Source: Actinomycetota bacterium (GTDB taxonomy: Bacteria; Actinomycetota; UBA4738; HRBIN12). From it: a stretch of 64,000 nucleotides of DNA. This document shows, in pieces, positions 5,605-29,740 of the stretch (its first letter is position 1; every line of letters begins with the position of its first letter). The DNA lies in contig JBKJXU010000097.1 in assembly GCA_046716145.1 (NCBI GenBank), positions 9,676-73,675 on the forward strand, in the 5' to 3' direction. The position numbers and the translations under genes are program-made. Below the pieces are notes generated by a model, which saw nothing but the letters and a program-made list of their open reading frames with translations, was not told where the DNA came from and made no database searches.

Positions 5605-7143
5605 CTACTCCCACTCGATGGTGCCGGGGGGCTTGCTCGTTATGTCGTAGGCGACCCGGTTCACCCCGGGGACCTCGCGGACGATGCGGCTCGCGATCCG
5701 ATCGAGGACGTCGTGGGGCAGGCGCGCCCAGTCCGCGGTCATCGCGTCCTCGGAGGTGACCGCGCGGATCACGACCGGCGCTTCATAGGTCCGGCCGTCG
5801 CCCATCACTCCGACGCTCGACACATCGGCGAGCAGGACGCAGAACGCCTGCCAGGTCTCGCGTTCCAGGCCGGCGCGGCGGATCTCCTCGCGCACGATGT
5901 GGTCGGCGCCACGCACCTTCGCCAGGTTCTCAACGTTCACCTCGCCGACGATCCGGACGGCGAGACCCGGACCCGGGAACGGCTGACGGTGCACGATCTC
6001 CTCGGGCAGACCCAGCTGCAACCCGACCTGACGGACCTCGTCCTTGAACAGGTCGCGCAGTGGCTCGATCAGCTCGAGATCCATGTCATCGGGCAGGCCG
6101 CCCACGTTGTGGTGGCTCTTGATGTTGGCGGCGGTCTTCGAGCCCGACTCGATCACGTCGGGGTAGAGCGTGCCCTGGACCAGGAACCTCGCGCCCTCGT
6201 GCTCGCGGGCGACCTCCTCGAAGACGCGGATGAACTCCTCGCCGATGGCTTTGCGTTTGCGCTCCGGATCGGTGACACCGGCGAGCTTGACCAGGAACCG
6301 GTCCTGCGCCTTCACATGCACGAGCGGCACGTGGAAGTGGCGCGCGAACGTCTCCTCCACCTGGTCGGGCTCGCCCTCGCGGTTCAGTCCGTGGTCGACG
6401 AACACGCAGGTGAGCTGCTCCCCCACCGCGCGATGCACGAGCAGCGCTGCGACGGCCGAGTCCACCCCTCCGGAGAGCGCACACAGGACCTGCGCCTCGC
6501 CGACCTGCTCGCGGATCCGTGCGACCTGCTCGTCGATGATGTTCGCGGGCGTCCAATCGGGTAGCAGGCCGCAGCCGTCGTAGAGGAACCGTTTCATCAC
6601 GTCCTGGCCGTGCGGCGTGTGCGTGACCTCCGGGTGGAACTGCACCGCGAACAGGCCGCGTTCGGGATCCTCCATCGCCGCGACCGGGATCGTGTCCGTG
6701 GTGGCCGTGACGCGGAACCCCTCGGGGGCGCGCGTCACGGCGTCGCCGTGGCTCATCCACACCGTGTCCTCGGCCGGGAGATCCTGCAGGAGCAGGCCGG
6801 GTTGGGTGACGCGCACCGCGGTGCCGCCGTACTCACGGTCGCCGGTGGCGGCTACCTCGCCACCGAGCGCCTGCGCCATCAACTGGTGGCCGTAGCAGAT
6901 CCCGAGCACCGGGACCCCGAGGTCGAACACCCCCGGGTCGACCTGGGGACCGTCGGGTTCGTAGACGCTCGCGGGGCCGCCGGACAGGATGAGGCCTGCG
7001 GGGCGCTTCGCAGCGAGCTCCGCCTTGGTCAGATCATGCGGGACGATCTCGGAGTAGACGTGGGCCTCGCGGACCCGCCGGGCGATCAGCTGTGCGTACT
7101 GCGCCCCCAGATCGACGACGAGTACGGGCCGCGGATCACTCAT
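5605..7143 (-). CDS. guaA: GMP synthase (glutamine-hydrolysing)
   Basis: 512 aa; class I amidotransferase [11 protein letters not shown]-PPase SGGVDS motif, C-terminal ...KPPGTIEWE. Confidence 0.95.
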
Positions 7144-7161: not shown

Positions 7162-7593
7162 TCATCCCAGCCCCTTGACCGTGATGCCGATGAACTGCCG
7201 GAAGTCCGTGTCGTTCGTCAGGATCGTCGTGGCACCGTGCTCCAGGCACAACGCGGCGATCTGCGCATCGAACACCTCGTCCCCCCGGGGCGTGACGTCG
7301 GCGATCAAGCCGCGTAGCAGGGGGAGGTAGCGACGTCCAGGCATGAGTACCCGAGCGCTCGGGCTAGCGACCAGGTTGTCGACGACCTCCAACGCGCGAC
7401 CGGGGGCCGTCGGTCGTTGCATCGGACCCCTCGGATGCGTAACCACGCGTAGGAACTCACCGATCACGAACACCGGGATCGCCCACGCACCGTGGCCTTC
7501 CGCCAACGCCCTCAGCGCCTCCCGCGCCTGCGCATGCTGCGGCGCCTGGGCGTGGTGCGCGTACACGAGGACGTTGGTGTCGACCGCGATCAC
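7162..7593 (-). CDS. vapC: VapC toxin (PIN domain)
   Basis: MIAVDTNVLVYA... PIN fold; 4-nt overlap with upstream vapB. Confidence 0.8.
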   Translation of the reverse strand: MIAVDTNVLVYAHHAQAPQHAQAREALRALAEGHGAWAIPVFVIGEFLRVVTHPRGPMQRPTAPGRALEVVDNLVASPSARVLMPGRRYLPLLRGLIADVTPRGDEVFDAQIAALCLEHGATTILTNDTDFRQFIGITVKGLG

Positions 7594-7877: not shown

Positions 7878-9038
7878 CTAGCGCCCCATCCCGACGTGCT
7901 GCTGGGTCTGGTACGCCTTGCCCTCGGTCTTGATCGTCGGCGCGATGACCAACTCGGCCTTCTGGAACTCCTTGATGCTCTGGTAGCCCGTGGTGGCCAT
8001 GCTCGTGGCGAGCGCCCCGAACAGGTTGAACGTCCCGTCGTTCTCGTGGGCCGGTCCGATGAGGATCTCCTCCATCGAGGCGACCTGCTGGGTCTTCACG
8101 CGCGCGCCGCGCGGAAGCGTGGGGTGGAACGTGGCCATCCCCCAGTGGTAGCCGCGGCCCGGAGCTTCATATGCCCGTGTCATCGGCGAGCCGATCATCA
8201 CCGCGTCGGCGCCGCAGGCGATCGCCTTCGCGATATCGCCGCCGGTGCGCATCCCGCCGTCCGCGATCACGTGGCAATAGCGGCCGGTCTCGTGCAGGTG
8301 CTCGCGCCGGGCGGCGGCCGCATCGGCGATCGCGGTGGCCTGCGGGACGCCGATCCCCAGCACGCCGCGGCTGGTGCACGCGTTGCCGGGGCCGACACCG
8401 ACCAGCACGCCCACCGCTCCGGTCCGCATCAGGTGCAGCGCCGTGGAATACGAGGCGCACCCGCCCACGATCACGGGGATGTCGAACGCTGGGATGAACG
8501 TCTTCAGGTTGAGTGGCTCCACCTTCGTGGAGACGTGCTCGCCCGAGACGACCGTGCCTTGGATGACCAAGATGTCCAGGCCGGCCTCCAGCACGAGCGG
8601 CGCGTAGCGCTCGACGCGCTGCGGCGTGAGCGAGGCGCATGACAGCACCCCACCAGCCTTGATCTCTTCGATGCGCCTGCCGATCAGCTCTTCCTTGATG
8701 GGCTCGGCGTACAACTCCTGCATCCGGCGGGTGGCCTTCTCGTCGGGGAGCCCGGCGATCTCGTCGTAGATCGGGGTCGGGTCCTCGTACCGGGTCCAGA
8801 GCCCTTCCAGGTTCAGGCACGCGAGCCCACCGAGCCGGCCGATCTCGATCGCGGTCGTCGGTGTAACCGCCGCGTCCATCGCGCTCGCCATCATGGGGAG
8901 CGCGAAACGGTACGCGTCGATCTCCCAGGAGATGTCCACGTCCACCGGGTCACGGGTGCGCCGTGACGGAACGATGGCGACCTCGTCGAACCCATAGGCC
9001 CTGCGGGCCGTCTTGCCGATGCCGATCTCGAACTCCAT
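7878..9038 (-). CDS. guaB3: IMP dehydrogenase family protein lacking CBS pair (GuaB3-like)
   Basis: 386 aa TIM-barrel IMPDH/GMPR family; N-terminus MEFEIGIGKTARRAYGFDEVAIVPSRRTR matches the GuaB3 type. Confidence 0.8.
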   Translation of the reverse strand: MEFEIGIGKTARRAYGFDEVAIVPSRRTRDPVDVDISWEIDAYRFALPMMASAMDAAVTPTTAIEIGRLGGLACLNLEGLWTRYEDPTPIYDEIAGLPDEKATRRMQELYAEPIKEELIGRRIEEIKAGGVLSCASLTPQRVERYAPLVLEAGLDILVIQGTVVSGEHVSTKVEPLNLKTFIPAFDIPVIVGGCASYSTALHLMRTGAVGVLVGVGPGNACTSRGVLGIGVPQATAIADAAAARREHLHETGRYCHVIADGGMRTGGDIAKAIACGADAVMIGSPMTRAYEAPGRGYHWGMATFHPTLPRGARVKTQQVASMEEILIGPAHENDGTFNLFGALATSMATTGYQSIKEFQKAELVIAPTIKTEGKAYQTQQHVGMGR

Positions 9039-9126
9039 GCGGGGGTCCCTCCCTAGGTGGCCGGCGATCCATGGAACGCAGAACGCCCACCCGTCCCCGG
9101 ATGGGCGTCAGTGAGAAGCATGCACG

Positions 9127-9695
9127 TCAGGGTAGCAGCCAGCCGGGCGCCGCCCGCTCAGCCCCCCGGACGGCGTCGAGGGCACGGCGCGCCTGCGCCA
9201 GGTGGAACCGATCGTGCCCCGCGATCATGCGGTGGGAGAGGTCGTAGCTCTCTGGTCCGCGCTCGCTGTGCATGCCGACGCGGCCACGTTCGTCGGCGGT
9301 CGATCGCTGCCACAGCGCCACGCTGGCCCGCTTCAACACCACGAGCGTGGCGATGAGTTCGTCGGGTTCCTCCCGGCTCCGATGCAGGTGGTCGACCCAC
9401 AGGTCCTGGTCGTAACCGATCAGGGGCGGCTCGTCATGGGCGATGATCCACCGATAGCGAGCCTCATGACGATCTCGGCGTCGACCTCGTGCGCGCGGCA
9501 CTCGAGGACGGACCACTCGGTCGGCGTGGGGCGGGTCGAGCGGTCCTCGCCGGCCTCCTCGAGGAGCCGCTCCCACGATGCCACCGTCTCCGACTGGACC
9601 TGGGCGGGGTCGTCCTCGCCGAGAAGGTCCAGCAGGTGCTGCTGGTAGGCCTCGGGTTCGCCGATCGGGTCGGGACTGGGCACAGCTCGGTCCAT
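9127..9695 (-). pseudogene. DinB/DUF664-family protein, apparent frameshift
   Basis: N-terminal part in ORF 9420-9695 (TPTEWSVLECRAHEVDAEIV) and C-terminal part in a different frame 9127-9576 (GYDQDLW...HSERGPESYDLSHRMIAGHDRFHLAQARRAL). Together a DinB_2-like protein split by a frame change near 9450-9570. Confidence 0.4.
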
Positions 9696-9704
9696 CGGTC
9701 GAGC

Positions 9705-11159
9705 CTACCGCGCGTCCTCACAGAGGAAGGCCGCGATGCGCTCGCCGATGACCACCGTGGGTAGGTTCGTGGTGGCACGGACGGTCCGCGGCATCAGCGA
9801 TGCATCCGCGACGATCAGCCCGTCCACTCCACGGACCCTCCCCCGATCGTCCGTGACGTCGCCCATCGCGCAGGTCCCGACCGGGTGCCAGCAATGGGCG
9901 ACGTTCGCCCTGATCACGACGGGCAGGTCCGCGTCGGGGCCCGGGACGAGCTCGCGGGCGAACAACTTCGCCATCGGCGCGGCCGCCAGGAACCGCCGGG
10001 CGCGCTCGACCCCCTCGATCAGGACCGCCAGATCGTGGCCAGCTTCATCGGTCAGGAAGCCGTGGTCCAGGATCGGCGAGGTCTCCGGATTTGCGTCCCG
10101 CAGCCGGAGCCGGCCCCGCGAGCGCGGGGTGAGGCACACCACGAAGAGACCGGGCTGCTCTCCACTCATCCGGACCTCGCTGAACAGATGCAGGTCGACG
10201 ACACCATCGGTGGCGAGCGAGCTCGCGAGGCTCGCGAACCCGAGCTCGTCGGGAAGAGCGCTGCCCGTCGCCGCGAACGCCGCGGTCCGGCGCTCGTACT
10301 CCTCGTTCGGCCGAAGGATCAGCTCGTAGGAGGGGTGGTCGTGCAGGTTGCCCCCGACGCCGGGGAGGTCGGCGACGATGTCGAGCCCGAGCGCACGGAG
10401 GTCGGTCGCCGGGCCGACGCCGCTGCGCAGCAGCATCGCGGGCGAGCCGTACGTGCCGCCGGCGAGCACGATGCGGCCGGCCCTCGCTTCGAACGCCCCG
10501 TCGGGTCCGATCGCCCGCACGCCGAGCGCACGGCCGTCTTCGATGAGGACGCGATCGACGAGCGTGTCGCCCTGGATCGTGAGGTGAGGGTCACCCCGGA
10601 CCGGATCGAGGTAGGCGAGCGCGGCGTTCCAACGGATCCCGCCGGGTGAGTTCGAGGGCTCCGCGCACACGCTCGGCCGCACATCGAGCGTCTGGAGTCG
10701 ATCCTCCAGAGGCAGGCCCAACGCCACCCCCGCCTCGATGAACGCGCGGTGCAGCGGCGACCAGTCCCCCTCCTCGAAGAGCCGTACCCGCATCCGCCGC
10801 GACGCCTCCTCGAACAGTGGCTGCAGCATGTCGGCCTCCCAGCCAGCGAGGCCCCAGCCGTCGTAGTCGGCCCGGTGACCCCACGACGCGGTGCATCCGT
10901 TGTGGGCCGAGCAGCCGCCGATCACTCGAGCCCGCTCGAACGGCAGACCGCCGTCCTCCGAGACGTAGCCCCAGTCGTGCGAGGTCGGGATCCGCGTCGC
11001 GTCGAGGAGATCAGCGGGCCAACGGCCCTCTGGCAACGCACCGTGGTCCGGCCCAGCTTCGAGGAGCAGCACGGACGCGCCGCCTTGGACCAACCGCGCC
11101 GCGACGACGGGACCCGCGGTCCCTCCACCGCAGACGATGACGTCGGCGCCCGCTGGCAT
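9705..11159 (-). CDS. GMC-family FAD-dependent oxidoreductase (ChoD/choline dehydrogenase-like)
   Basis: 484 aa; N-terminal VIVCGGGTAGPVVAARL FAD-binding fold, GMC signature regions. Confidence 0.85.
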   Translation of the reverse strand: MPAGADVIVCGGGTAGPVVAARLVQGGASVLLLEAGPDHGALPEGRWPADLLDATRIPTSHDWGYVSEDGGLPFERARVIGGCSAHNGCTASWGHRADYDGWGLAGWEADMLQPLFEEASRRMRVRLFEEGDWSPLHRAFIEAGVALGLPLEDRLQTLDVRPSVCAEPSNSPGGIRWNAALAYLDPVRGDPHLTIQGDTLVDRVLIEDGRALGVRAIGPDGAFEARAGRIVLAGGTYGSPAMLLRSGVGPATDLRALGLDIVADLPGVGGNLHDHPSYELILRPNEEYERRTAAFAATGSALPDELGFASLASSLATDGVVDLHLFSEVRMSGEQPGLFVVCLTPRSRGRLRLRDANPETSPILDHGFLTDEAGHDLAVLIEGVERARRFLAAAPMAKLFARELVPGPDADLPVVIRANVAHCWHPVGTCAMGDVTDDRGRVRGVDGLIVADASLMPRTVRATTNLPTVVIGERIAAFLCEDAR

Positions 11160-11186
11160 GACCAGCAGCGTAGTCGGTCGCGACGG

Positions 11187-11819
11187 TCAGCTCTCCTTGA
11201 CCACGTGCCCCGACTCGGCCACCCGCAGGTCCGTCATGCCGGAGTGCACGCGGTCGCCTTCCATCAGGACCTCGTCGGCATCGAGACGGCCCAACTCCTT
11301 GAGGCGCGTGAGCACGAACCGCAGCGACTCCTCGGGGCTCTGCGACAGCGTGTCCACCACGATCTCGGGGTCCTCCGGCACCTCGTAGGGTGCGTCAGGA
11401 CTCACGCCCGTGAACTCCTTGATCTCCCCCGCCAAGGCCTTCTTGTAGAGGCCCTTGGGGTCACGGTTCGCAGCGATCTCATCGACGGTGGCGTGCACGT
11501 ACACCTCGACGAACTCTCCGATCAGCGCACGGTTGGCGTCGCGGGTCTCCTTGTAGGGACTGATCGGGCAGCAGATCGTGGCCACGCCGTTGCGCGTGAG
11601 CAGGTTCGCGACGAACCCGATCCGCATGATGTTGAGGTCGCGGTCCTCTTTCGAGAACCCGAGGCCCTTGGACAGGTTCTGGCGGACCACGTCGCCGTCG
11701 AGGATCTCGGTCTTCATGCCGCGCGCCTGGAACTCGTGGAAGAGCATCTCGGCGATGGTGGACTTGCCCGAGCCCGAAAGGCCGGTGAACCACACGGTGA
11801 ACCCGTTCTGGTCGCTCAC
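11187..11819 (-). CDS. cysC: adenylylsulfate (APS) kinase
   Basis: 210 aa; P-loop GLSGSGKST, typical APS-kinase core; no ATP sulfurylase domain or adjacent cysDN/sat. Confidence 0.9.
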   Translation of the reverse strand: MSDQNGFTVWFTGLSGSGKSTIAEMLFHEFQARGMKTEILDGDVVRQNLSKGLGFSKEDRDLNIMRIGFVANLLTRNGVATICCPISPYKETRDANRALIGEFVEVYVHATVDEIAANRDPKGLYKKALAGEIKEFTGVSPDAPYEVPEDPEIVVDTLSQSPEESLRFVLTRLKELGRLDADEVLMEGDRVHSGMTDLRVAESGHVVKES

Positions 11820-13228
11820 TACAGGAAGCTCCTTCCGACGACGCCCGGCAGTGCCGTGGTCGAGTCGATGCCGTAGATGGACAGGATGGAGGGGCCCACG
11901 TCGACGAGGCTGAGCCCGTCGACCTTGCCCGTCTGCTGGCCGGTGAGCCCGGTCATGATGAAGATGCCGTCGCGGTCGTGGTTGGCGCCATCAGGACCGG
12001 TGTCGTTCTCGTAGGTGTAGAGGCTGGGGTTGCCCACCGAACCGACCGAGCGCCACTCCAGGTCGCCGAAGTAGACGATCAGGTCCGGCGCCACACCGCG
12101 AACCTCGGGGTAGGCGTCCTGCGGCTTGTGGACCTTGGTTCCCAGTGGAGTACCGTCGGGGCCGACCTGCGCCTCCAGCTTCGCGACCAGCTCGTTCCGT
12201 GTCGCCTCGTAGTTCGCGGGCTCGACGATCCCCCGCGGTTCGCGTCCCTTCACGTTCAGGAACAACCGCCCGTAGTAGCCGCCGTCGCCCCAGGCGGCCG
12301 TGCGGTCCCAGTCGATCTTCGCGTCCTTGATGGGGATCGGGCCGTCGGTGACGGGCTCCGACAGGACGAGGTGCCCTTCCTGGATGAGCCAGTCGTTGAA
12401 ACACAGGCCTCCCATCATCGGACGTGCGCCATGGTCGCTCATCACCATCGTGACGGCGTCACTCGGCACCAGCTCGAGGAAGTCGGCGAGCTGCCGGTCC
12501 AAGAACCGGTAGTAATCCTGGAACACCCCTTCGTACCTGTTCCCCGGCTCGTAGAGCGGGTGGCGGGGGTCGAAGTACTGCCAGAACACGTGATGCAGGC
12601 GGTCCGGCGCGATGTCGCACAGCATGAAGAAGTCCCACGGCTTGTTCTGGATCAACCGGCGCCCTACCTGGAACCGGCGCTCGGTCATCTTGAACACCTG
12701 ATCCAGCGTCACGTCGAACCCGGCCTGACGGAAATTGGGGATGTCGAAGATGTAGTTGCCCTTGCCCTCGAGCTCTTCCTCGATCTCGACCTCGAGCTCC
12801 TGGGGGAACGCCCACTTCTCGGCGCTCGGAGGGGTCAGGAAGCAGCCCACGCGCCAGCCGGGGAAGCTGGTGGGCGGCGGGAACGAGGGCGGGACGCCGA
12901 TCAGGACCGAGCGCTTCCCCTGGGCGCCGAGCGCATCCCAGACGGCGGGATGCTTGATCGCCCCCGAGTGCGCGATCGCGAGCCCGTCGTAGGTGGTGTC
13001 CTTGCGGTTGCGGAACCCGTAGATGCCCAACTGTCCGGGGACCGCGCCGGTCATGGCGCAGGCCCACGCGGGAACCGTGATCGGCGGCGTGATGGAGGCG
13101 AGGTCCCCGTACATGCCCTCACCCATCAGTTTCGCGATGGTGGGCACTTCGGCATGCAGATCCTCGAAGAGGAGCTTCGGGGTGCCGCAGTCAAGGCCGA
13201 CCACGACGACCCGGGGACCCTGCTGCAT
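11819..13228 (-). CDS. alkaline-phosphatase superfamily protein, type I phosphodiesterase/nucleotide pyrophosphatase family (paralog 1)
   Basis: 469 aa; VVVGLDCGTP...ITPPITVPAWACAMTGAVPGQLGIYGF (catalytic Thr region of PF01663-like enzymes), SDHG metal site; stop overlaps cysC start codon. Confidence 0.75.
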   Translation of the reverse strand: MQQGPRVVVVGLDCGTPKLLFEDLHAEVPTIAKLMGEGMYGDLASITPPITVPAWACAMTGAVPGQLGIYGFRNRKDTTYDGLAIAHSGAIKHPAVWDALGAQGKRSVLIGVPPSFPPPTSFPGWRVGCFLTPPSAEKWAFPQELEVEIEEELEGKGNYIFDIPNFRQAGFDVTLDQVFKMTERRFQVGRRLIQNKPWDFFMLCDIAPDRLHHVFWQYFDPRHPLYEPGNRYEGVFQDYYRFLDRQLADFLELVPSDAVTMVMSDHGARPMMGGLCFNDWLIQEGHLVLSEPVTDGPIPIKDAKIDWDRTAAWGDGGYYGRLFLNVKGREPRGIVEPANYEATRNELVAKLEAQVGPDGTPLGTKVHKPQDAYPEVRGVAPDLIVYFGDLEWRSVGSVGNPSLYTYENDTGPDGANHDRDGIFIMTGLTGQQTGKVDGLSLVDVGPSILSIYGIDSTTALPGVVGRSFL

Positions 13229-13359
13229 GACTGACTCCTTGGGCGTTCGGAGGTGTCCGGGGCGGGGCGGGCGCGCTGCCGCGCAAGGCTGCCTCCGCGG
13301 TTGGCGTATCCTACCAGCCGTCCTGCGCCCGACCGCGGGCGCGCGGAGGGCCTGCGGAC

Positions 13360-13755
13360 ATGTTCCTCCTACGACGCGTGCTGAAGATCCAGTCCGCCCT
13401 ATGGGCGCTCACGGGACTGGCGCTGGGACTGGTTCCACTTACGGTCCTCGAGGCGTTGGGGCAGTCCTCCGTCGAGGAAACCGCGTGGCTCCGCATGCTC
13501 GGCGTCACGGCCGTCGTCCTCGCACTGCTGATGTGGCTCGTCGCCGGGGCGCTCGATCAGGTGTGGTGGTGGGCGTGGGCCTTCGCCGTCCTGGAAGCAG
13601 GGGTGGCGACCCTCGCGCTCGTGAACGCGACCTTCAGCGTGGACCCGGGCGCGCCGGCGTGGGCGTGGTGGGTCATCGGCGGGGTCTCCGTCGCCCTCGC
13701 AGCCCTGGATCTCGTGGGGCTCGGGCGGACCAGTCAGGAGAAGCCGCAGGTCTAG
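13360..13755 (+). CDS. small integral membrane protein (hypothetical)
   Basis: 131 aa, 4 predicted TM helices, Trp-rich; only plausible coding frame in this gap. Confidence 0.4.
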   Translation: MFLLRRVLKIQSALWALTGLALGLVPLTVLEALGQSSVEETAWLRMLGVTAVVLALLMWLVAGALDQVWWWAWAFAVLEAGVATLALVNATFSVDPGAPAWAWWVIGGVSVALAALDLVGLGRTSQEKPQV

Positions 13756-14828
13756 GCAGCGGCGATGCGCTCCGAAGCGATGTGGTCGGCGGCCGCCGCA
13801 GGCGTGATCGCCTCGGTCTCCGCGGTAGCGAATATCCCTCGAAGCGTCTCGCCGATGCCCATGAGCCGATCCTGCACCTGTTCCCGGCTCCAACCCAGAC
13901 GCTCGTAGCCGGCCAGGTGGATCACCCCGCCGGCGTTCACGACGTAGTCGGGGGCATACAGGATCCCGGCCGCGGCGAGGCGCTCTGCGTCGTCGGGACG
14001 GGAAAGCTGGTTGTTCGCCGCACCTGCGACGATCCGACAGTGGAGGCGGTCGATCGTGGCCTCCTTCAGGACGCCACCGGTCGCACACGGCGAGAAGACG
14101 TCGCACGCCACGTCGAACTCCTCGCCCGCATCCACCATCTGCGCGCCGATCCGGTCAGACACGGCCGCGGCTCGCTCCGGATCCACGTCGGCCACCACGA
14201 GGTGCGCTCCATCGCTCGCCAGCAACTCCGCGAGCGGCGCGCCGACGGCGCCGGCGCCCTGGATCACCACGGTCCGACCGGACGGGTCGTCGGACCCGTA
14301 GACATGACCGAGCGCTGCCCGGATCCCGTGATACACGCCAAGTGCCGTGTCCGGGGCGCTCGAACCGGAGCCGCCGCGTTCCTCGGACATCCCCATCACG
14401 TTCGGGCACCTCGACGCCAGCATGTCCATGTCATGCTCGTTCGTGTTCATGTCGCACGCCGTCACGTAGCTCCCGCCGAGCGAGCCGATGAGGTCGGCGT
14501 ACCGATCCATGAGGCGGCGGCGGTCCTCCCCCTGCGGCACGGCCGGTACCGCGAGCACGGCTTTGCCCCCACCGAACGGGACGCCGGCGATCGCGTTCTT
14601 GAGGGTCATCGCCTGCGAGAGCCGCAGCACGTCGCGCACGGCGTCGGCGACCACGGCGTACGGCTTCATCCGGGTGCCGCCGAACCCGGGACCGAGTCTG
14701 GTCGAGTGCACCCCCACGAGCATCCATGTCTGGGTGGGCGCATCGAAACGGCTGGCGAGGAACTCACCGTCCCAGTCTCGAAGCAGCTCCTCGAACGCCA
14801 CAGGGGGAGTCTCTGCGGCCACGCGCAT
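13752..14828 (-). CDS. Leu/Val/Phe dehydrogenase family (valine dehydrogenase-like)
   Basis: 358 aa; Glu/Leu/Phe/Val dehydrogenase catalytic region GGGKAV and Rossmann GAGAVG. Confidence 0.85.
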   Translation of the reverse strand: MRVAAETPPVAFEELLRDWDGEFLASRFDAPTQTWMLVGVHSTRLGPGFGGTRMKPYAVVADAVRDVLRLSQAMTLKNAIAGVPFGGGKAVLAVPAVPQGEDRRRLMDRYADLIGSLGGSYVTACDMNTNEHDMDMLASRCPNVMGMSEERGGSGSSAPDTALGVYHGIRAALGHVYGSDDPSGRTVVIQGAGAVGAPLAELLASDGAHLVVADVDPERAAAVSDRIGAQMVDAGEEFDVACDVFSPCATGGVLKEATIDRLHCRIVAGAANNQLSRPDDAERLAAAGILYAPDYVVNAGGVIHLAGYERLGWSREQVQDRLMGIGETLRGIFATAETEAITPAAAADHIASERIAAA

Positions 14829-17540: not shown

Positions 17541-18764
17541 CTACGCCACGTTGTACCAATACCGGTGGGGCGTGCCCGGGGTGGACGTCATGGCGATCAG
17601 CCCCGTCGAAGCGCTCACCGTCTGTTTGGTCGACGTGGGGTTCGACAGCGTGTACACGTCGTCGGTGGTCCAGGGAATCGGGGCCTCGAACACCGGTGCG
17701 GACGCCGTGGCATGCCAGACGTAGGTGTCTCCTCCTAAGACGTTGGCGAACACGTGCACCTCATCCGCCAGGGGATCCACCACCACGATGGGGCGTGTGA
17801 AGTTGGATGTGACATCGCTCACCTGCACGGGCGACCAACCGGTCGACGTGCGTCGCAGGAGCATGACCAAAGGATCTGCCGGACTGGGCACCAGCGCGTC
17901 GTTCAGACTCGTCTTGACCGTGGCGTAGAGGGTGTCGCCGACCGCCTTGATGTTCAGGTGATCATCGGCGCAGGCGGTCGACGCCGTGACCGGGCATCCG
18001 GTGGCAGCTCCGAACGCCTCCTCGATCGTGAAGCTGGTACGGGACCTAGGAGCGGTGTCGTCCCGCGAGGCGAACAGGAAGCGTTGCGAAGCCTGATCCG
18101 ACCACAGGACACCGATCCGCCCGGGGCCGTAGGCGACGACGGCGGCGATGTCGTCGCTCGTAACCCCCGTGTCGGACACCCGGCGGAACGTGAACGCCGA
18201 CCCCCCGACCGACAGGTAGCCCGCCTTGATGGCCGCGGACTGCTCGAAGGCGACCCAGATCCGCCCCGTCGAGTCCTTGGCCACGGTGATCGTTTCGACG
18301 TTGGCGGTCGTGATCGCGGTCGGCGTCCCTTGCGCCGTCCAACCACCGGAACCGTCGTACGAGAGCCGGTGAAGGAGGCTCACGCGCGGGTTGGTCTCGG
18401 TCCCGGGCTTGTTGTCACGCAGGGACACCAGCAACTCGCTCGCGTCGGCATCGTAGGAAGCGTCGGCCTTGGCCCAGGGGTCGCTCTCGGGGAGCAGCAG
18501 CACCGGGGTCCATCCGGTCGGGTCGAGCCGGAAGAGGTAGACACCCGGGGTCACGTCCTTGGCCAAACCCAAGGCGGCCCACCAGATGCCGTCGGGGGTG
18601 TAGAAGAGCTTGCTCTCGGGCTTCTGGCCGGTCGCTTCAGCCCCTCGGCTGCTGACGGCGGAGCCTCGGAAGGGGCCCGGGATCCCCACCGTGTCCGCCG
18701 CGCTCGCCGGAAGCGCGATCGCGATGACCGCGAACGTGGTGAGGGCGATGAGGGTTCTGCGCAT
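17541..18764 (-). CDS. secreted BNR/Asp-box repeat protein (possible glycoside hydrolase/sialidase-like beta-propeller)
   Basis: Signal peptide MRRTLIALTTFAVIAIALPASA; several S-x-D-x-G-x-x-W-like repeats (SYDGSGGWT, KDSTGRIWVA, STGWSPV). Confidence 0.5.
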   Translation of the reverse strand: MRRTLIALTTFAVIAIALPASAADTVGIPGPFRGSAVSSRGAEATGQKPESKLFYTPDGIWWAALGLAKDVTPGVYLFRLDPTGWTPVLLLPESDPWAKADASYDADASELLVSLRDNKPGTETNPRVSLLHRLSYDGSGGWTAQGTPTAITTANVETITVAKDSTGRIWVAFEQSAAIKAGYLSVGGSAFTFRRVSDTGVTSDDIAAVVAYGPGRIGVLWSDQASQRFLFASRDDTAPRSRTSFTIEEAFGAATGCPVTASTACADDHLNIKAVGDTLYATVKTSLNDALVPSPADPLVMLLRRTSTGWSPVQVSDVTSNFTRPIVVVDPLADEVHVFANVLGGDTYVWHATASAPVFEAPIPWTTDDVYTLSNPTSTKQTVSASTGLIAMTSTPGTPHRYWYNVA

Positions 18765-18897
18765 GGCTTGAGGTCGGCGTCGGCCGCTACTTGAGAGTGC
18801 CTGAGGGCGCGCGGGAACGTCAATGGGACGAAGGTCTCGCCACCGGGGGAGCCGAAGGGCCGCCACGGCGATGGTGTCCCGTTGTTAGTTTGCCCGC

Positions 18898-22903: not shown

Positions 22904-23884
22904 ATGATGGACAAGATCCTCGAGATCATCGAACGGCGATGGACGCTCGCGGTGTTGACCGGCGCCCTCATCGGCTCGTCGATCGGCTTGCTCGGAACCA
23001 TCACGGCGCCCGATGTCTACGTCGCTCGCTCGCTCGTCGTCCTCACCAACGCGAGCATCCCGCCCGAAGAGTTCGCCGGGGTAGCTGGGGCGATGTTCCC
23101 GACCGATGCGGTCCTGCGTCCCGTCATCCGCCAGCTCGGGTTGGATCGAACGCCCAGCCAGTTGATCGCGGACGGGTCCGTGTCGTTGGAACCCCAGCCC
23201 GGCGGCCTGGCCGTGAACGTCGTCGCCCGGACGAACGGACCGGACCTCGCCGTCGCTATCGCGAACGCGACGGCAGCCCAACTCGCCGACGTGAGCCAGA
23301 TCAATGGGATCGGTGAGCTCGCCGAGTTCCCCGCGGAGGGCCCAGCCGGGGTCCAGGCCGACTCGCCGCTGCGCGGGATCGCCCTGGGTGCTCTCATCGG
23401 CGCGGTGATCGCGGCGCTCGATGTGGCGATCGTCTTCCTGTTCCGGCGCAGGAGCCTCGGCTCCGACGGGAGGTTCCGGTTCGACGCGATGGTGCGCGCG
23501 AGCGTGACGGCCGCCACCGAGGAGACAACGTCTCCGACGGTGAGCGCCGCGTATCCGCTGGGGGCCCTGCTCGGCATGCTCGGTGAAGAGGCGGGCGGGC
23601 ATGAGGTGGTCGCCGTGGTCCTGGACGGTGGGCGCGACCTGTGGGCCTCGCTCGCGGCAGCCGACGAGCTCAGGCGTCTCGCGGAAGGTCGCCGCTCGGG
23701 CGGCTTCCGCGTGCTCTCCCCCGGCGAGGAGCCATCCGACGAAGACACCGCGGGCCCTGTGCTCGTGATCGCGGCCGACCACACGCCGGCCTCGCGGCTA
23801 CGTGACCTCCGCCGCCGGCTCCGCGACAGCAACGGTGACGCGACCACGGCCCTGCTCTTGGTCCGCGCATTCGACGGAGGCTGA
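22904..23884 (+). CDS. Wzz-like polysaccharide chain-length determinant / co-polymerase family protein
   Basis: N-terminal TM (LAVLTGALIGSSIGLLGTI), periplasmic region, second TM (LGALIGAVIAALDVAIVFLF), cytoplasmic C-terminal domain. Confidence 0.5.
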   Translation: MMDKILEIIERRWTLAVLTGALIGSSIGLLGTITAPDVYVARSLVVLTNASIPPEEFAGVAGAMFPTDAVLRPVIRQLGLDRTPSQLIADGSVSLEPQPGGLAVNVVARTNGPDLAVAIANATAAQLADVSQINGIGELAEFPAEGPAGVQADSPLRGIALGALIGAVIAALDVAIVFLFRRRSLGSDGRFRFDAMVRASVTAATEETTSPTVSAAYPLGALLGMLGEEAGGHEVVAVVLDGGRDLWASLAAADELRRLAEGRRSGGFRVLSPGEEPSDEDTAGPVLVIAADHTPASRLRDLRRRLRDSNGDATTALLLVRAFDGG

Positions 23885-23888
23885 AGCC

Positions 23889-24785
23889 GTGCGGGATGCG
23901 AGCGCCGATGACGGCCTGCTCGTCGACTGGCTCGCCCACTACGCGGCACTCATGCTCGTCATCATCGTCGTGATCACGGCGGGGGCTACGGCCTGGGCGG
24001 CGTTCGTCCTGCCGAGCCGCGAGATGTGGACCATCGTCGTGGACTCGACCCAAGACGTGCCGGCACGCGAGCTCGGCGTGGTCGGCGAGGCCCTCTTCCA
24101 GGCGGAGGACACCTCGACCGAGGCGATGGCGGCGCTCGGCTTGACCGGTGAGCCCGAGCAGCTCTATCGCTTCGTCCAGCTCCGAGCCGTCCCCGAGTCA
24201 CGTCTCCTGATCGTCGTCGCACGGACCGATGACCTCTACACCGCGTCGAGCGCCACCGACGCGATGGCACAGGCGCTCGTGCACGCGTTCGAGCGGGCCG
24301 GCTATACGGGGATGCGGGTCTTGGGGGCGCCGCAGCCGGCTCCCGTCGCCTCGGGCCTCTCGGTCGGTGTCGTGGCGCTCGCGGCCGTGGTGATGGGGAT
24401 CGTCCTGGCGCTCGGGGTCGCGATCGTCGCCTACCGATCGCGCCGGCCGGTCCTCACGATGCAACGTGCCGCCGCGCTCGTCGATCCGCTCACCGTCGCG
24501 TCGATCCCGGGAAGCGCCCGAGCGCTGGGCTCGCTCCGGCGGCGCCCGCCGAGGATCTCGAGGGGGTCGCTCCGGCTCGCAGCGCCGTTCGGTGACGACA
24601 CGAGGCTGCAGGCCCCCGGTTTCTCCGAGCGGGATCGGCGAAAGCTCGCGCGCTCGCTCGGGGTACCTGCGCGCAGCGAGGGTCCCCGCGCCGTCATCGC
24701 GTGCGACGCTGCCACGCGCGAGCGCGATCTCCGCGCCGTGACCAGCACGAACGCGTCCCCGCTCGAGCTGCTATGGATCGCGTGA
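23889..24785 (+). CDS. second Wzz-like two-TM membrane protein
   Basis: GTG 5 nt after previous stop; TM (LMLVIIVVITAGATAWAAFVL), periplasmic segment, TM (VALAAVVMGIVLALGVAIVAY), Arg-rich C-terminus. Confidence 0.45.
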   Translation: MRDASADDGLLVDWLAHYAALMLVIIVVITAGATAWAAFVLPSREMWTIVVDSTQDVPARELGVVGEALFQAEDTSTEAMAALGLTGEPEQLYRFVQLRAVPESRLLIVVARTDDLYTASSATDAMAQALVHAFERAGYTGMRVLGAPQPAPVASGLSVGVVALAAVVMGIVLALGVAIVAYRSRRPVLTMQRAAALVDPLTVASIPGSARALGSLRRRPPRISRGSLRLAAPFGDDTRLQAPGFSERDRRKLARSLGVPARSEGPRAVIACDAATRERDLRAVTSTNASPLELLWIA

Positions 24786-24938
24786 GCGGCACGCCCCTTC
24801 ACCGGCCTGGTCACCGCGGACCAGATCCTGGCAGGATGCGCGGGATCCCCCCTCACGTTTCGCCCCTTCCCCGCCGATGTTCTTCCATGAGTGGGGACCG
24901 TTCCTGGCCACGCTCAGCCGGAGGGACGGAAGGGGTTC

Positions 24939-25916
24939 GTGCGTGTGATCGAGGCTCGCCGATCGAGGCGATGGATGGGACTGGGAGTGAGCGCCGCGGT
25001 GCTCGCGGTCTCGATGGCGCCCGCTGCGCACGCGGTCTACAGACCGTTCGTGGATCGGAGCTACTGGAACCGATCGCTGCCGAACGACGCCCCACGCCAC
25101 CCCGACTCCGCACGAATCATCGACTTCCTGCGAGTCGACAACGACACGAACTACATCCGGCTGGCGGGAGCGACGCCGACGGGCGAGTGGGGCATGCCGA
25201 TCTACTGGCCCAGGCGCGAAGCACCCGTGTACGACGTCGGCCGCAACTGCAGCGTCGAGCAACCGCGCGAGTTCAACAACGTCCGCATCCCTCGGGGAGC
25301 GCGCCCAGATCCGACGAACGACGCCGCCATGACGATCATCGACAGGAACCGCGGGGTGGCCTACGGCCTCCATCACGCCCGCTACGACCGGAAGAACGAC
25401 CGCTGGACATCCTGCGGCGGGACCGTCTACTACCTCGCATCGAACGGCTTGCACGGCGACCTTCGCGCATCGGACGAGAAGCGCAATCGCGGTCACCGGG
25501 GCGTCCCGCCGACCATCTCGGCCGTGCGCTTCGACGAGGTGCGCGCGGGCTCGATCGACCACATCCTCAAGATCGCGGTGAACAGGACCGCGTGCCGGCA
25601 CGTCTTCCCGATGATCGACAGCGAGTGCGGTACGACGAACCGCTACGCGCCGCCGGAGGGCATACGGATCAGGATCAGGCCGGGGGTCAACCTCGAGAGA
25701 CTGCATCTGTCGCCGGCCGCGCTCGTCATCGCCCGGGCCCTGAAGCGGTACGGCGCGATCATCGGGGATCAATCCGGGGGTCCGATCGTCCTCAAGCTGG
25801 AGAACACGGTCGCGGAGGGTCGCGGGTTCCTGTGGAAGGGCATCCTCACACCGACATCGCTGGAGCGGATCCCGCTCCGCTATCTCGAGGTCTTGGCGCC
25901 GGGCTACCGGCCGTAG
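24939..25916 (+). CDS. secreted hypothetical protein (unknown function, in glycan cluster)
   Basis: Signal peptide RRSRRWMGLGVSAAVLAVSMAPAAHA; no recognised motif; start (GTG 24939 or Met 24975) uncertain. Confidence 0.5.
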   Translation: MRVIEARRSRRWMGLGVSAAVLAVSMAPAAHAVYRPFVDRSYWNRSLPNDAPRHPDSARIIDFLRVDNDTNYIRLAGATPTGEWGMPIYWPRREAPVYDVGRNCSVEQPREFNNVRIPRGARPDPTNDAAMTIIDRNRGVAYGLHHARYDRKNDRWTSCGGTVYYLASNGLHGDLRASDEKRNRGHRGVPPTISAVRFDEVRAGSIDHILKIAVNRTACRHVFPMIDSECGTTNRYAPPEGIRIRIRPGVNLERLHLSPAALVIARALKRYGAIIGDQSGGPIVLKLENTVAEGRGFLWKGILTPTSLERIPLRYLEVLAPGYRP

Positions 25917-25938: not shown

Positions 25939-27300
25939 GTGGACCTCCTGACGCTGGCGATCGGCGGCCTCGCGGCGATCTGCGCGTGGCTCTGGGCGGT
26001 GCGCGACCCGATGCGGACGATCGTGCCGGCCTACGCCGCACTCATCCCCTTGGGTGGGGTGCTCGCGCTGCGGATCCCGCTGCCGGCGCCGTTCAACACA
26101 CTCTCCTCGGCCGCGGGTGCACTCGCGATCGTCGCGCTGGCCGTGCACCTCGTGCGTTCCGGGCGTGGCCGTGTGCCCTCCCTCCCTGTGGGTGGCTGGC
26201 TCCTGTTCGTGGCGTGGGGCGCCATGACGGTGCTGTGGTCCGTCGACCCGACGGACGTCGTTCGGGAGATGACCCTCGCCGTGCCGCTGCTGGCCATCGT
26301 GGTGCTCGTCGCGATGGAGCCGGCGGATGATGGCGACCTCCGACGGATCGCATGGGCCACGCTGGCGTCGGGCGCAGCGATCGGCGCGTACGGGATGGCG
26401 CTCATCGTGGTCGGCGGCTCGCTCCCGGAGCACGGGCTGTCGGCGCGGTTCTCGCTCAGCGCCGACACGAACCCGAACCAACTGGCAACCAGTCTGTTGT
26501 TGCCCTTCTTCCTGGGCTTGGGCCTGACCCTGGATCGTCGCGACCCCGGTGCGCAGCGTTGGCGGGCCTACGCGGCGCCGGGCGGCACCATCCTGACGGG
26601 TGCGGCCATCGCGCTGTCCGGCTCGCGTGGCGGCGCGCTCGCTACGGCATTGGGCTCCGCCGTGTTCGTGGCGCTCGCCTGGCGCTGGTCGCCGTGGCGG
26701 CGCGACGCGGTCCGCCGCCTCGTCGCGGCAGGCATGGCCGGTGCCGCCGCGCTCGTTCTCACGGGCGTGCTCGCTACTTCGCTAGCGCCCGACAGCCGCA
26801 TCGCCTCGCTCCTTGCTGGGGACGCGGTCGGCCGGCTGGGAGCTGTGGAGTCGTCTTCGGGCCGGGCAGAGATCTGGACGGCCGGGGCCTTGGCGTGCAC
26901 GGCATACTGCGGCGTCGGATCCGGTCTCGGCACGTTCCCCGACGTGTACAACGACGTGTTCGCGTTCTCCAACGTCACCCGCAACGTCGGTGCCAGCCGC
27001 CCCGGACACAACCTCTACCTGGAGATCGCGGTCGAGACCGGACTACTCGGCATCGTGCTGTTCTGGATGGCGATCGGGAGCGAGTTCCGCGCGATCGCCA
27101 GACGCCGTGCCTCATGGCTCGCCCCGGCGCTGGCCGCAGCCATCGTTGCGATCCTGGTGGCTGACATCTTCGAGGGATTCCTGTGGTTCAAGCATGCGTG
27201 GCTGCCCTTCACCGTGATCCGCGTCTTCGAGTCCGCGGCGGATCGGAGCGCATCGGCCGAGGCCCGCCGGGAAGCGGCGTTCCCGCGGGTCATCTCGTGA
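25939..27300 (+). CDS. O-antigen ligase/polymerase family membrane protein (Wzy/WaaL-like)
   Basis: 453 aa, about 10-12 TM helices, LSGSRGG motif in a periplasmic loop typical of the O-antigen ligase/Wzy_C family. Confidence 0.7.
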   Translation: MDLLTLAIGGLAAICAWLWAVRDPMRTIVPAYAALIPLGGVLALRIPLPAPFNTLSSAAGALAIVALAVHLVRSGRGRVPSLPVGGWLLFVAWGAMTVLWSVDPTDVVREMTLAVPLLAIVVLVAMEPADDGDLRRIAWATLASGAAIGAYGMALIVVGGSLPEHGLSARFSLSADTNPNQLATSLLLPFFLGLGLTLDRRDPGAQRWRAYAAPGGTILTGAAIALSGSRGGALATALGSAVFVALAWRWSPWRRDAVRRLVAAGMAGAAALVLTGVLATSLAPDSRIASLLAGDAVGRLGAVESSSGRAEIWTAGALACTAYCGVGSGLGTFPDVYNDVFAFSNVTRNVGASRPGHNLYLEIAVETGLLGIVLFWMAIGSEFRAIARRRASWLAPALAAAIVAILVADIFEGFLWFKHAWLPFTVIRVFESAADRSASAEARREAAFPRVIS

Positions 27301-28223
27301 ACCTGCCGAACCTCCTGATCGCCGGGGTCCCGAAGGCAGCGACCGGGTCGCTGTTCGCCTACCTGGGACAACACCCGGCCGTGTGTGCGTCGAGCCGCAA
27401 GGAGATCAAGTACTTCTCCCCCGACGCCGCTGATGGCCGGTCGCGTCCGCTCGAGTGGTACGAGCGCTTCTTCGCCCATCGCGCCGGTGAACCGTTCGCG
27501 CTCGAGGCGACGCCGTCCTACTGCTACATGGGACCACGTGTGATCGACGCCATCGGGTCGAGCCTGGAGCGTCCCCGGGTGATCTGGATCCTTCGTGATC
27601 CGGTGGATCGCCTCTGGTCGGCCTACACGTTCCAACGGAGCCTCGGGCACCTGCCCGCGGGTATCGACACGTTCGAGGTGTACATCGATGCATGCATCGC
27701 CGAACGGACGGCCCATCCCCGCGTGCTGGACCAAGGATCGTTCAAAGGACTGTCGATAGGGATGTACGGCGAGCACCTACCGGCCTGGGACGAGGCCTTC
27801 GGCGAGGATCTGCGCGTGCTCTTCTTCGATGATCTCGCGAGGGACCCCGTCGAGGTGGTTCGGGGCGTGTGTGGGTGGCTGGGCATCGACGGCTCCGTGG
27901 TCGACGGGTTCGTGTGGGAAGCACACAACCCGACGGTGCACCCCCGCAGCGTGACACTCGCGCGAGGTGCAGCGACCGCCCGCGGTTGGAGCAAGCGCGT
28001 GCTTCGGCGGGCGCCGGGCCTGCGCAAACGGCTTCGCGATACCTACGTCCGGGCGAACGCGGGCATCCTGCGGGAAAGGCCGCGACCCGAGACGACCGAG
28101 CGGCTCCGGACGCTGTACGCCGGGTCCAACGCTGTCGTGATGAACGTGGCGCGGCGGCGCGGCATGACGCCGCTCCCGGACTGGCTCGAGCCCCCTCAGC
28201 CCTCCGGCACGAACCCCGCCTGA
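27297..28223 (+). CDS. PAPS-dependent sulfotransferase (Stf0-like, paralog 1)
   Basis: GTG overlapping previous stop (GTGA); 5'-PSB LIAGVPKAATGSL and 3'-PB ILRDPVDRLWSAY motifs. Confidence 0.75.
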   Translation: MNLPNLLIAGVPKAATGSLFAYLGQHPAVCASSRKEIKYFSPDAADGRSRPLEWYERFFAHRAGEPFALEATPSYCYMGPRVIDAIGSSLERPRVIWILRDPVDRLWSAYTFQRSLGHLPAGIDTFEVYIDACIAERTAHPRVLDQGSFKGLSIGMYGEHLPAWDEAFGEDLRVLFFDDLARDPVEVVRGVCGWLGIDGSVVDGFVWEAHNPTVHPRSVTLARGAATARGWSKRVLRRAPGLRKRLRDTYVRANAGILRERPRPETTERLRTLYAGSNAVVMNVARRRGMTPLPDWLEPPQPSGTNPA

Positions 28224-29740
28224 TCGGGGTCCCGGCCGCTCGCGGAGTCCTCACCACGCACGCGCAGCGCCCGCAGCGCCGATCTGTCCTCCTCGGACAG
28301 ACCCAGTCCCCAGAGGGCGACGACGTACGCCACAGCGACGACCGCCGCCGCGACGATGGCAGCGCTCGCGCCGTCGACCGGGACGATCGCCACGACGAGC
28401 AGCGAGCCAGCCGCGGCGACGCTCGCGGCGAGTGCAGGTTTCCAGACGTCGCGCGAGAACGGGAGTATCCGCTCGCGTGCCCAGATCTGCAGCAGGGGGA
28501 CCACGTTGTTCGAGGCGGTTCCCGCCGCCTTCGCGATGGCAGCGCCCGCGACGCCGTGCCGTGGGATGAGGACGAACGCGAGCCCGATCTCGAGCGCGAT
28601 CACGACGAGGTAATCGGCGAGCGCCGTCGCCGAGCGCCCCATCATGATCAGCGTGACGGTCACCGGGCCCGTCCCGAAGTTGAACAGCATCCCGAGGGCG
28701 AGGATCCGAAGCGCCGTCGTCCCTTCGGTGAACCCCGGCCCGAATACGGACAACAGCTCATGCGGGAAGGCGAGCATCAGGACCAGCAGGGGAGCACCGA
28801 GGGTGAACGTCCACCTGGTCGCGCTGCGATAGAGCGCGGCGAACTCCGTGCGCTTGCCCTGCAGGAAAAGGTCGGAGCCGATCGATGTGTAGACCTGGTT
28901 CAGCGAGTTCACGACCGATGTGAGGGCCCCGGCGATGCGGTTCGCGGCGGCGTACACGGCGGTCGCGATGACCGCCGCGATGGAACCCAAGAGCACCGGC
29001 ATGATCTGGCCTCGGCTCTGGCCGGCCAAGCGGGAGCCCCAGGCGGGCAATGCGAACCGTATGAGCGACCACGGTTCGACCGGTGCCACATCGCCCGTGA
29101 GCGGGACGCGACGCCACAAGACCGCGAGGGACACGGCGAGCAGAACGCACTCCGCCAGCAGGAGTCCGGCGTAGGCGGCCACCAACGACGCCGAGGCCAT
29201 CGCAAGCGCGCCGACCACGAGGAGCCGCACGGTCGGCTGCAGGACGTTGCGGATCAACGCCGCGTCGCGCATCTCCTTGAACGCCTGGGTGGCATACACG
29301 AGCACTTGACGCATACCGACGACCGGCGCCATCACGGCGGTCAGGCGCAACAGGGGCTCCAGATCCGCGTCGTGGAACACGGAGCGCGCGACGGGCCCCG
29401 CTGCCAGGAACAAGCCGGCACCGAGCAACGCGAGTCCGACCCCGGCGAGCGCCAGCGCCACGTGGATCGTTGCCCGTAGACGTGGGATATCGCCGATGCC
29501 GTGCTGGTAGGAGCCCTGACGCATCACGATCCAGTCGGCGCCGAGTTGCCCCACGATCGACAGGAGTTGCCCCAAGGAGAAGGCGATCGCCCACAGGCCG
29601 AAGGCGAGCTTGCCGTAGGTGCGCGCGATCACCACGGCCAGGACGAACGACCCGGCGAAGCTCACGACACCGCTGGACACGAGCAACGCCGAACCGCGCG
29701 CCATGCGGCCCGTGTGCGCGTGCACGACGGGGTCGTTCAT
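28196..29740 (-). CDS. wzx: Wzx-type polysaccharide flippase (MOP/PST family)
   Basis: 514 aa, 12-14 TM helices, polysaccharide biosynthesis protein family pattern; ATGA overlap with upstream sulfotransferase. Confidence 0.8.
   Translation of the reverse strand: MNDPVVHAHTGRMARGSALLVSSGVVSFAGSFVLAVVIARTYGKLAFGLWAIAFSLGQLLSIVGQLGADWIVMRQGSYQHGIGDIPRLRATIHVALALAGVGLALLGAGLFLAAGPVARSVFHDADLEPLLRLTAVMAPVVGMRQVLVYATQAFKEMRDAALIRNVLQPTVRLLVVGALAMASASLVAAYAGLLLAECVLLAVSLAVLWRRVPLTGDVAPVEPWSLIRFALPAWGSRLAGQSRGQIMPVLLGSIAAVIATAVYAAANRIAGALTSVVNSLNQVYTSIGSDLFLQGKRTEFAALYRSATRWTFTLGAPLLVLMLAFPHELLSVFGPGFTEGTTALRILALGMLFNFGTGPVTVTLIMMGRSATALADYLVVIALEIGLAFVLIPRHGVAGAAIAKAAGTASNNVVPLLQIWARERILPFSRDVWKPALAASVAAAGSLLVVAIVPVDGASAAIVAAAVVAVAYVVALWGLGLSEEDRSALRALRVRGEDSASGRDPDQAGFVPEG

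Follow-up and report, generated by a model that had tools for sequence, protein, structure and literature searches.

The stretch of DNA analysed here comprises 64,000 nucleotides of an Actinomycetota bacterium (contig JBKJXU010000097.1 of assembly GCA_046716145.1, positions 9,676 to 73,675; hereafter the window) and carries a gene for a 469-amino-acid (aa) protein of the family PF01663 directly upstream of cysC, the gene of a stand-alone adenosine 5'-phosphosulfate (APS) kinase. We consider it probable that the PF01663 protein is a cytoplasmic pyrophosphatase (PPase) of the nucleotide pyrophosphatase/phosphodiesterase (NPP) fold that is made together with APS kinase and helps to drive the synthesis of 3'-phosphoadenosine 5'-phosphosulfate (PAPS). 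This reading draws on the conserved linkage between the two genes, domain fusions, homology to an archaeal cluster member and published work on that cluster, separately encoded PAP phosphatases, a eukaryotic precedent, a complete set of NPP catalytic residues and the lack of a signal peptide. More specifically, the protein is most likely a bacterial, reduced and translationally coupled member of a kind of enzyme that has been described and is poorly annotated.

The rationale lies in the chemistry of sulfate activation. ATP sulfurylase converts ATP and sulfate into APS and inorganic pyrophosphate (PPi) with a very unfavourable equilibrium, and removal of PPi and APS drives the reaction (PMC2275785); in an in vitro assay of ATP sulfurylase with APS kinase, PPi removal is rate-limiting (PMC10322725). 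In the mechanism we propose, the PF01663 enzyme would hydrolyse the PPi released by ATP sulfurylase, APS kinase would phosphorylate APS to PAPS, and coupled translation would hold the output of the two enzymes in step. The PAPS would then supply three or more sulfotransferases of a neighbouring Wzx/Wzy polysaccharide island, a flow that we infer. ATP sulfurylase (Sat or CysDN) and a phosphatase for 3'-phosphoadenosine 5'-phosphate (PAP) are presumably encoded beyond the window.

The gene pair and its conservation across species

Both genes lie on the minus strand. The PF01663 gene (11819-13228) has a Shine-Dalgarno sequence AAGGAG 6 nt ahead of its ATG (start region 13226-13240), and its product matches PF01663 across residues 7-413 with an E-value of 2.3e-39 (Pfam). 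The cysC gene (11187-11819) encodes 210 aa that match the APS_kinase family PF01583 (E-value 6.7e-57, Pfam) and score 200 bits against TIGR00455 (cut-off 138.7); the P-loop GLSGSGKST is intact and an LDGD is also present. At the coupling junction (11817-11836, minus strand), which reads CTG TAG TGA GC, the TAG stop of the PF01663 gene (11821-11819) and the GTG start of cysC (11819-11817), the earliest start codon available in that frame, share 1 nt, and the Shine-Dalgarno sequence of cysC, GGAAGGAG, is located at 11836-11829, 9 nt 5' of the GTG. The coordinates and the overlap given in the original prediction, which was made from the sequence alone, are confirmed, and the pair is coupled in translation. 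The junction type in 27 related loci is a 4-nt overlap (GTGA, ATGA or TTGA). In a relative with 98% identity (L010) the junction is CTGCAGTGA, from which the window differs by one C>T substitution (CAG>TAG); this change places the PF01663 stop one codon earlier, resulting in a 1-nt overlap instead of the 4-nt GTGA overlap typical of the clade.

Conservation was assessed with a pattern scan using one genome per GTDB species, which yielded 80 loci that were screened by tblastn with Sat, CysC, PHP and other queries. The family is large, with 2033 clusters (50% identity) at E<1e-30 and thousands of homologues labelled at best 'alkaline phosphatase family protein'; the top locus, 98% identical, comes from the metagenome-assembled genome (MAG) 'Actinomycetota bacterium LejiaA_69_12'. 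Of the 74 species-level loci having enough downstream sequence, 48 continue on the same strand with cysC as the adjacent gene; among Actinomycetota of the close clade (62-98% identity), 30/31 loci with enough sequence have it directly downstream. In 25 of 48 distant species (46-53% identity), Sat immediately precedes the PF01663 gene, CysC immediately follows it, or both, in the same orientation. The gene order Sat>PF01663>CysC>PHP recurs in a second Actinomycetota clade (L040-L053, for example L040 8667-12938) and looks like a complete cassette for PAPS supply and PAP clearance. Genes outside this Sat to PHP core differ between loci and mostly have no connection with glycans, so the module is self-contained. 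Related arrangements were found in Anaerolineae (Sat>PF01663>CysC), in a Thermodesulfobacteriota MAG (Sat>PF01663>PHP) and elsewhere (Sat>PF01663, in part followed by PHP). The adjacency of cysC and PF01663 is therefore not unique to this genome but recurs in Actinomycetota, Anaerolineae and the archaeon Ferroglobus, and the 80-locus survey rules out chance adjacency of the two genes.

Fold and active site of the PF01663 protein

The closest structures to the 469-aa protein are those of Xac NPP and ENPP4/6/7/1/3, with structure comparison values of 29.3 for Xac NPP and 28.5-29.0 for ENPP4, ENPP7 and ENPP6, followed by PhnA (25.6) and PafA (24.2). Identity to the NPP-type structures is only 13-17%, and about 335 of the 469 residues align, the remaining 130 or so forming an insertion of the subfamily. 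A plain sequence search of the PDB with the protein returned no relative, and NCBIfam holds no model for this family. Profile alignment to Xac NPP together with family alignments reveals a complete set of metal ligands (D13, D209, H213, D265, H266 and H417), and these ligands and the predicted nucleophile, T51 in PPITVPAW, are conserved throughout the subfamily; the PF01663 match is thus accompanied by the full two-metal site and the Thr/Ser nucleophile. The N-terminus MQQGPRVVVVGLDCG leads directly to beta-strand 1, with no signal peptide or hydrophobic leader, so the secretion or membrane anchoring of canonical NPP is absent. The protein also falls outside the folds of the PAP phosphatases (CysQ/FIG, DHH and PHP). 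As judged from these residues, it is a cytoplasmic and catalytically competent enzyme with two metals and a Thr nucleophile, belonging to the NPP branch within the alkaline phosphatase superfamily.

Four Arg-rich motifs are invariant in the subfamily (YGFR-x-R, GGYYGR, GREP and WRS), and YGFR-x-R adjoins the nucleophile region. Their Arg residues may border an anion pocket into which PPi would fit. Compared with Xac NPP and ENPP1-7, the window protein is cytoplasmic rather than secreted, carries the insertion and YGFR-x-R, and would likely act on PPi rather than on a nucleotide diester. As a side observation, a CobW/COG0523 GTPase gene is found 3' of a homologue in a Binatia MAG (L058 11416-12372) and in a 'delta proteobacterium' MAG (L089 11421-12368); CobW/COG0523 is a metal (Zn) chaperone family, which would fit a Zn-dependent PF01663 enzyme.

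Archaeal counterpart, domain fusions and candidate substrates

A profile search identified an archaeal homologue, P0492 of Ferroglobus placidus (457 aa), within the cluster Sat>DHH>PF01663>CysC>TauE. Over 454 residues, P0492 and the window protein share 44% identity (E-value 1e-149), and this full-length alignment indicates that the window protein is a full-length homologue of a component of the archaeal cluster. The cluster has been described as ATP sulfurylase, DHH PAP phosphatase, PYCH_17550 and APS kinase, shared by T. onnurineus, Ferroglobus placidus and others; PYCH_17550 of P. yayanosii is a 'type I phosphodiesterase/nucleotide pyrophosphatase' and was proposed to degrade PPi (PMC8268124). 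The corresponding genes of T. onnurineus are TON_1704 (APS kinase), TON_1705 (pyrophosphatase), TON_1706 (PAP phosphatase) and TON_1707 (ATP sulfurylase) (PMC4463584). TON_1705 is listed as a PPase with a pH optimum of 9.5, a kcat of 2.1 s-1 and a Km of 18.8 uM (PMC9653972, Table 1, drawing on Lee et al. 2009, J Bacteriol 191:3415). The statement in the original prediction that a role in sulfonucleotide metabolism is not established for the family is, for the archaeal cluster, out of date (PMC4463584; PMC9653972; PMC8268124).

The archaeal pyrophosphatase (TON_1705, PYCH_17550 and the Ferroglobus member) resembles the window protein in being a cytoplasmic PF01663 protein encoded directly upstream of APS kinase. 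In contrast to the archaeal cluster, the operon of the window clade is reduced to PF01663>cysC, with overlapping stop and start and with neither Sat nor a PAP phosphatase adjacent; moreover, the window pair is bacterial and lies next to a sulfotransferase-rich glycan island, and its activity is predicted. Thermoprotei-type archaeal homologues (P0271 and P0323) are found outside Sat/CysC clusters, one of them with TauE upstream. In a metagenomic locus without Sat/CysC that was found via a Thermoprotei query, a TauE/DUF81 anion exporter-like gene adjoins the PF01663 gene, and such a gene lies just 3' of cysC in Ferroglobus, as PMC8268124 notes for Pyrococcus (L094 5163-7350; L097 8899-9642).

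Domain fusions tie the family directly to sulfate activation. P0125 (45% identical) joins PUA_2, ATP sulfurylase and PF01663; two independent assemblies carry it in identical form, with cysC directly 3' of it. P0134 is a fusion of APS kinase and PF01663, P0235 of PF01663, a pyruvate-kinase barrel and ATP sulfurylase, and P0262 of PF01663 and a pyruvate-kinase barrel (for P0235 and P0262, L007 7459-10914); as a guess, the barrel might regenerate ATP for PAPS synthesis. In P0252, PF01663 is fused to an NTP_transferase domain, so that the family is joined to a second, unrelated type of PPi-releasing enzyme (a sugar-phosphate nucleotidyltransferase domain). Directly 3' of P0235, with a 4-nt overlap, is a gene for a PHP protein that matches PDB 2yb1 (E-value 1.7e-29), which we take to be Cv1693, a 3',5'-bisphosphonucleotide phosphatase.

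The archaeal counterpart and the logic of the fusions point to PPi as the likely substrate. First, PF01663 is fused to two unrelated kinds of PPi-releasing enzyme, Sat and the sugar-phosphate nucleotidyltransferase domain. Second, PAP phosphatases (Cv1693-like PHP proteins and archaeal DHH proteins) are separately encoded in the same operons, leaving PPi removal as the unfilled step. Third, PPase activity is reported for TON_1705. Fourth, the fusions of ATP sulfurylase and PPase in stramenopiles and haptophytes (PMC2275785) run parallel: they follow the same logic of pulling the reaction forward and are mirrored by the prokaryotic Sat-PF01663 fusions. The window candidate differs from these eukaryotic fusions in belonging to the alkaline phosphatase superfamily and in being translationally coupled and unfused. 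PMC2275785 names the eukaryotic fusion partner simply as 'inorganic pyrophosphatase'; as a family I soluble PPase, it would be unrelated in fold to PF01663.

Several observations weigh against the reading as a PPase of the PAPS pathway. The kcat of TON_1705 is 2-4 orders of magnitude below those of the other PPases with a kcat in the table of PMC9653972, except TON_0002 (0.16 s-1), and PPi may therefore not be the best substrate. TON_1705 is equated with the PF01663 gene because T. onnurineus, P. yayanosii and F. placidus have the cluster genes in identical order, and not by alignment; homology searches and cluster look-ups returned homologues from Thermoprotei, Asgard, Desulfurococcaceae and Ferroglobus and none from Thermococcus. 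No assay of a bacterial member was found in the literature searched, and searches on COG3379, or on PF01663 together with sulfotransferase, found nothing relevant. The subfamily also carries the conserved insertion of about 130 residues and the invariant Arg-rich motifs. Finally, 23 of the 48 distant homologues adjoin neither Sat nor CysC, neighbours scanned at 13 of these 23 loci are mostly glycan-synthesis genes (Wzx flippases, a PMT-like glycosyltransferase, the glycosyltransferase GT4, GDP-mannose dehydratase, DegT aminotransferase and lipoteichoic acid synthase-like proteins), and in the close clade of the window no Sat was detected by tblastn within 10 kb (30 loci).

The low turnover of TON_1705 on PPi (PMC9653972) leaves place for a better substrate, and the enzyme could be a sulfonucleotide hydrolase, either a PAP 3'-phosphatase or an enzyme cleaving PAPS or APS, that detoxifies PAP or regulates the PAPS pool. 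NPP-fold enzymes, to which the nearest structures belong, do cut nucleotide pyrophosphate and phosphodiester bonds, and with no PHP or DHH gene beside the pair in the window clade the role of PAP phosphatase is formally vacant there. The fuller operons, however, already hold a Cv1693-type PHP or a DHH PAP phosphatase beside the PF01663 gene (PMC8268124; PMC10322725), an enzyme that destroys PAPS or APS would give a futile cycle if fused to Sat or CysC, and the NTP_transferase fusion is unconnected to sulfonucleotides yet releases PPi. We regard such a hydrolase as unlikely. PAP phosphatase had been our first working idea and was downgraded once the Cv1693-like PHP and DHH genes were seen in the same operons. 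Known PAP phosphatases (CysQ, the DHH proteins NrnA/MtPAPP and the PHP protein Cv1693) are likewise metal-dependent phosphohydrolases of PAPS-pathway operons, but their folds differ from PF01663 and they co-occur with it in the same operons without replacing it. The original prediction had suggested that the family acts in sulfonucleotide metabolism, for example in hydrolysis or transfer of PAP, PAPS or APS; the tie to the PAPS pathway holds through conserved linkage and fusions, while those substrates appear less likely than PPi.

The same slow turnover, together with the Arg-rich motifs, the insertion and the joining of the domain to Sat, to CysC and to the pyruvate-kinase barrel, would also suit a specialised subunit in a PAPS-synthase assembly of prokaryotes, acting on another or an extra substrate. 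Such a subunit might edit APS or PAPS, remove PAP where PHP and DHH are lacking, or form APS in the Sat-less clade; we assign this idea a low probability.

The glycan genes around homologues that lack Sat and CysC, the fusion of PF01663 to a family 2 glycosyltransferase (GT2) in P0151 and the two further family members in the glycan island of the window would fit a phosphoesterase of glycan pathways, acting on a phosphorylated glycan intermediate or on a nucleotide sugar or nucleoside diphosphate, in which case the link to Sat and CysC would reflect their shared presence in sulfated-polysaccharide clusters. This is doubtful, and we give it little weight: the Sat>PF01663>CysC>PHP operons are self-contained with variable outer neighbours, the clusters of Ferroglobus and Thermococcales serve sulfate activation (PMC8268124), proteins in which the domain is joined directly to Sat or CysC favour a part in activation itself, and PPi-releasing nucleotidyltransferases are also present in glycan clusters, so that a glycan context suits a PPase too.

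The lack of Sat or CysDN within 10 kb in the 30 close-clade loci and in the whole window, together with the nucleotidyl-Thr intermediate through which NPP chemistry runs, raises the idea of a non-canonical ATP sulfurylase in the Sat-less clade, in which a Thr-AMP intermediate would pass AMP onto sulfate to give APS that is trapped by CysC. We hold this to be very improbable. Homologues at about 50% identity with the same invariant residues adjoin or are fused to canonical Sat, where the activity would be redundant, and Actinomycetota normally have cysDN elsewhere in the genome. To our knowledge, there is no biochemical precedent for an ATP sulfurylase of the NPP fold. Replacement of ATP sulfurylase by the PF01663 protein was accordingly set aside as unlikely, given the fusions and the adjacency to canonical Sat.

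Surroundings in the window and significance

No match was found by tblastn of the 64-kb window with Sat, CysD, CysN, CysH, PHP and pyruvate-kinase queries, in agreement with the original prediction that ATP sulfurylase is absent from the window. The pair sits in a conserved core region, in which sortase, guaB and an IMPDH-like gene come before it and an ELFV dehydrogenase and groEL/ES after it; a PIN-domain protein gene (7162-7593, minus strand) separates guaB (5605-7143) from the IMPDH-like gene (7878-9038). Divergent from the PF01663 gene is a gene for a 131-aa predicted membrane protein without Pfam match (13360-13755, plus strand); by tblastn, most loci of the close clade have it on the opposite strand, 100-250 nt upstream, and other clades lack it. 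On the other side, 27 nt 3' of cysC, is a GMC oxidoreductase gene (9705-11159, minus strand; PF00732/PF05199), for which the top NCBIfam match, MftG, is far under its cut-off. An equivalent 487-aa open reading frame (ORF) follows cysC in L010; the gene is not at this position in L001, L003 and L004, and other relatives have a GT4 or IMPDH-like gene there. The GMC oxidoreductase gene is possibly co-transcribed with the pair as a lineage-specific gene. A scan of 9000-14000 for promoters and terminators gave neither a promoter nor a terminator-like site and is uninformative at 69% GC.

The Wzx/Wzy-type glycan island spans about 18-42 kb of the window, beyond which are tsaD, alr, glmS, glmM and ribosomal genes. 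Encoded in it are a priming sugar transferase, a GT2, a deacetylase, ATP-grasp proteins, two PF01663 proteins and three Pfam-supported sulfotransferases, the presumed consumers of PAPS: 27183-28223 (plus strand; PF00685, E-value 5.7e-13), 29737-30708 (minus strand; PF13469, E-value 2.3e-32) and 36696-37682 (minus strand; PF13469, E-value 4.4e-22). Four sizeable ORFs of the island and its flank have coding-like GC3 and no Pfam match (17541-18866, minus strand; 22904-23884, 23802-24785 and 24891-25916, plus strand).

The two island proteins of PF01663 had been called close paralogs of the cysC-linked protein; membership in the family holds for both, but they are not close. Paralog b (30617-32314, minus strand; PF01663 E-value 3.9e-37), with the second sulfotransferase directly 3' of it, is 29% identical, and paralog c (21059-~22702, minus strand; E-value 5.6e-29) 28% identical to the cysC-linked protein (26-27% by tblastn). 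The listed ORF of paralog c reaches 23782; its PF01663 match begins only at residue 367 of 907, indicating that the ORF is over-extended at the 5' end. Both paralogs have a C-terminal LRGLGY(I/L)E tail (LRGLGYIE in paralog b) and lack the YGFRNR (YGFR-x-R) motif, FRNR being replaced by FVQR in paralog b. Given this distance and the missing motif, a function shared with the cysC-linked protein is not to be assumed, and the distant paralogs beside sulfotransferases could have a second activity in sulfated-glycan synthesis. In the window, and likewise at an unrelated metagenomic locus (L005 5079-7249), a sulfotransferase gene follows directly on the longer PF01663 type. P0125 is preceded by a second PF01663 gene of greater length, beside sulfotransferases and GT2s, which matches the two-type layout of the window.

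The main value of the finding is annotation, and no new kind of biology is opened by it. If the proposed role is true, thousands of proteins now called 'alkaline phosphatase family' or 'predicted AlkP superfamily phosphohydrolase/phosphomutase' could receive an annotation as the component that removes PPi in PAPS-supply modules of prokaryotes. A PF01663 gene with a stand-alone cysC would then flag makers of sulfated glycans or metabolites, and the Sat/PPase/CysC/PAP-phosphatase set would offer a compact cassette for PAPS regeneration in biocatalysis.

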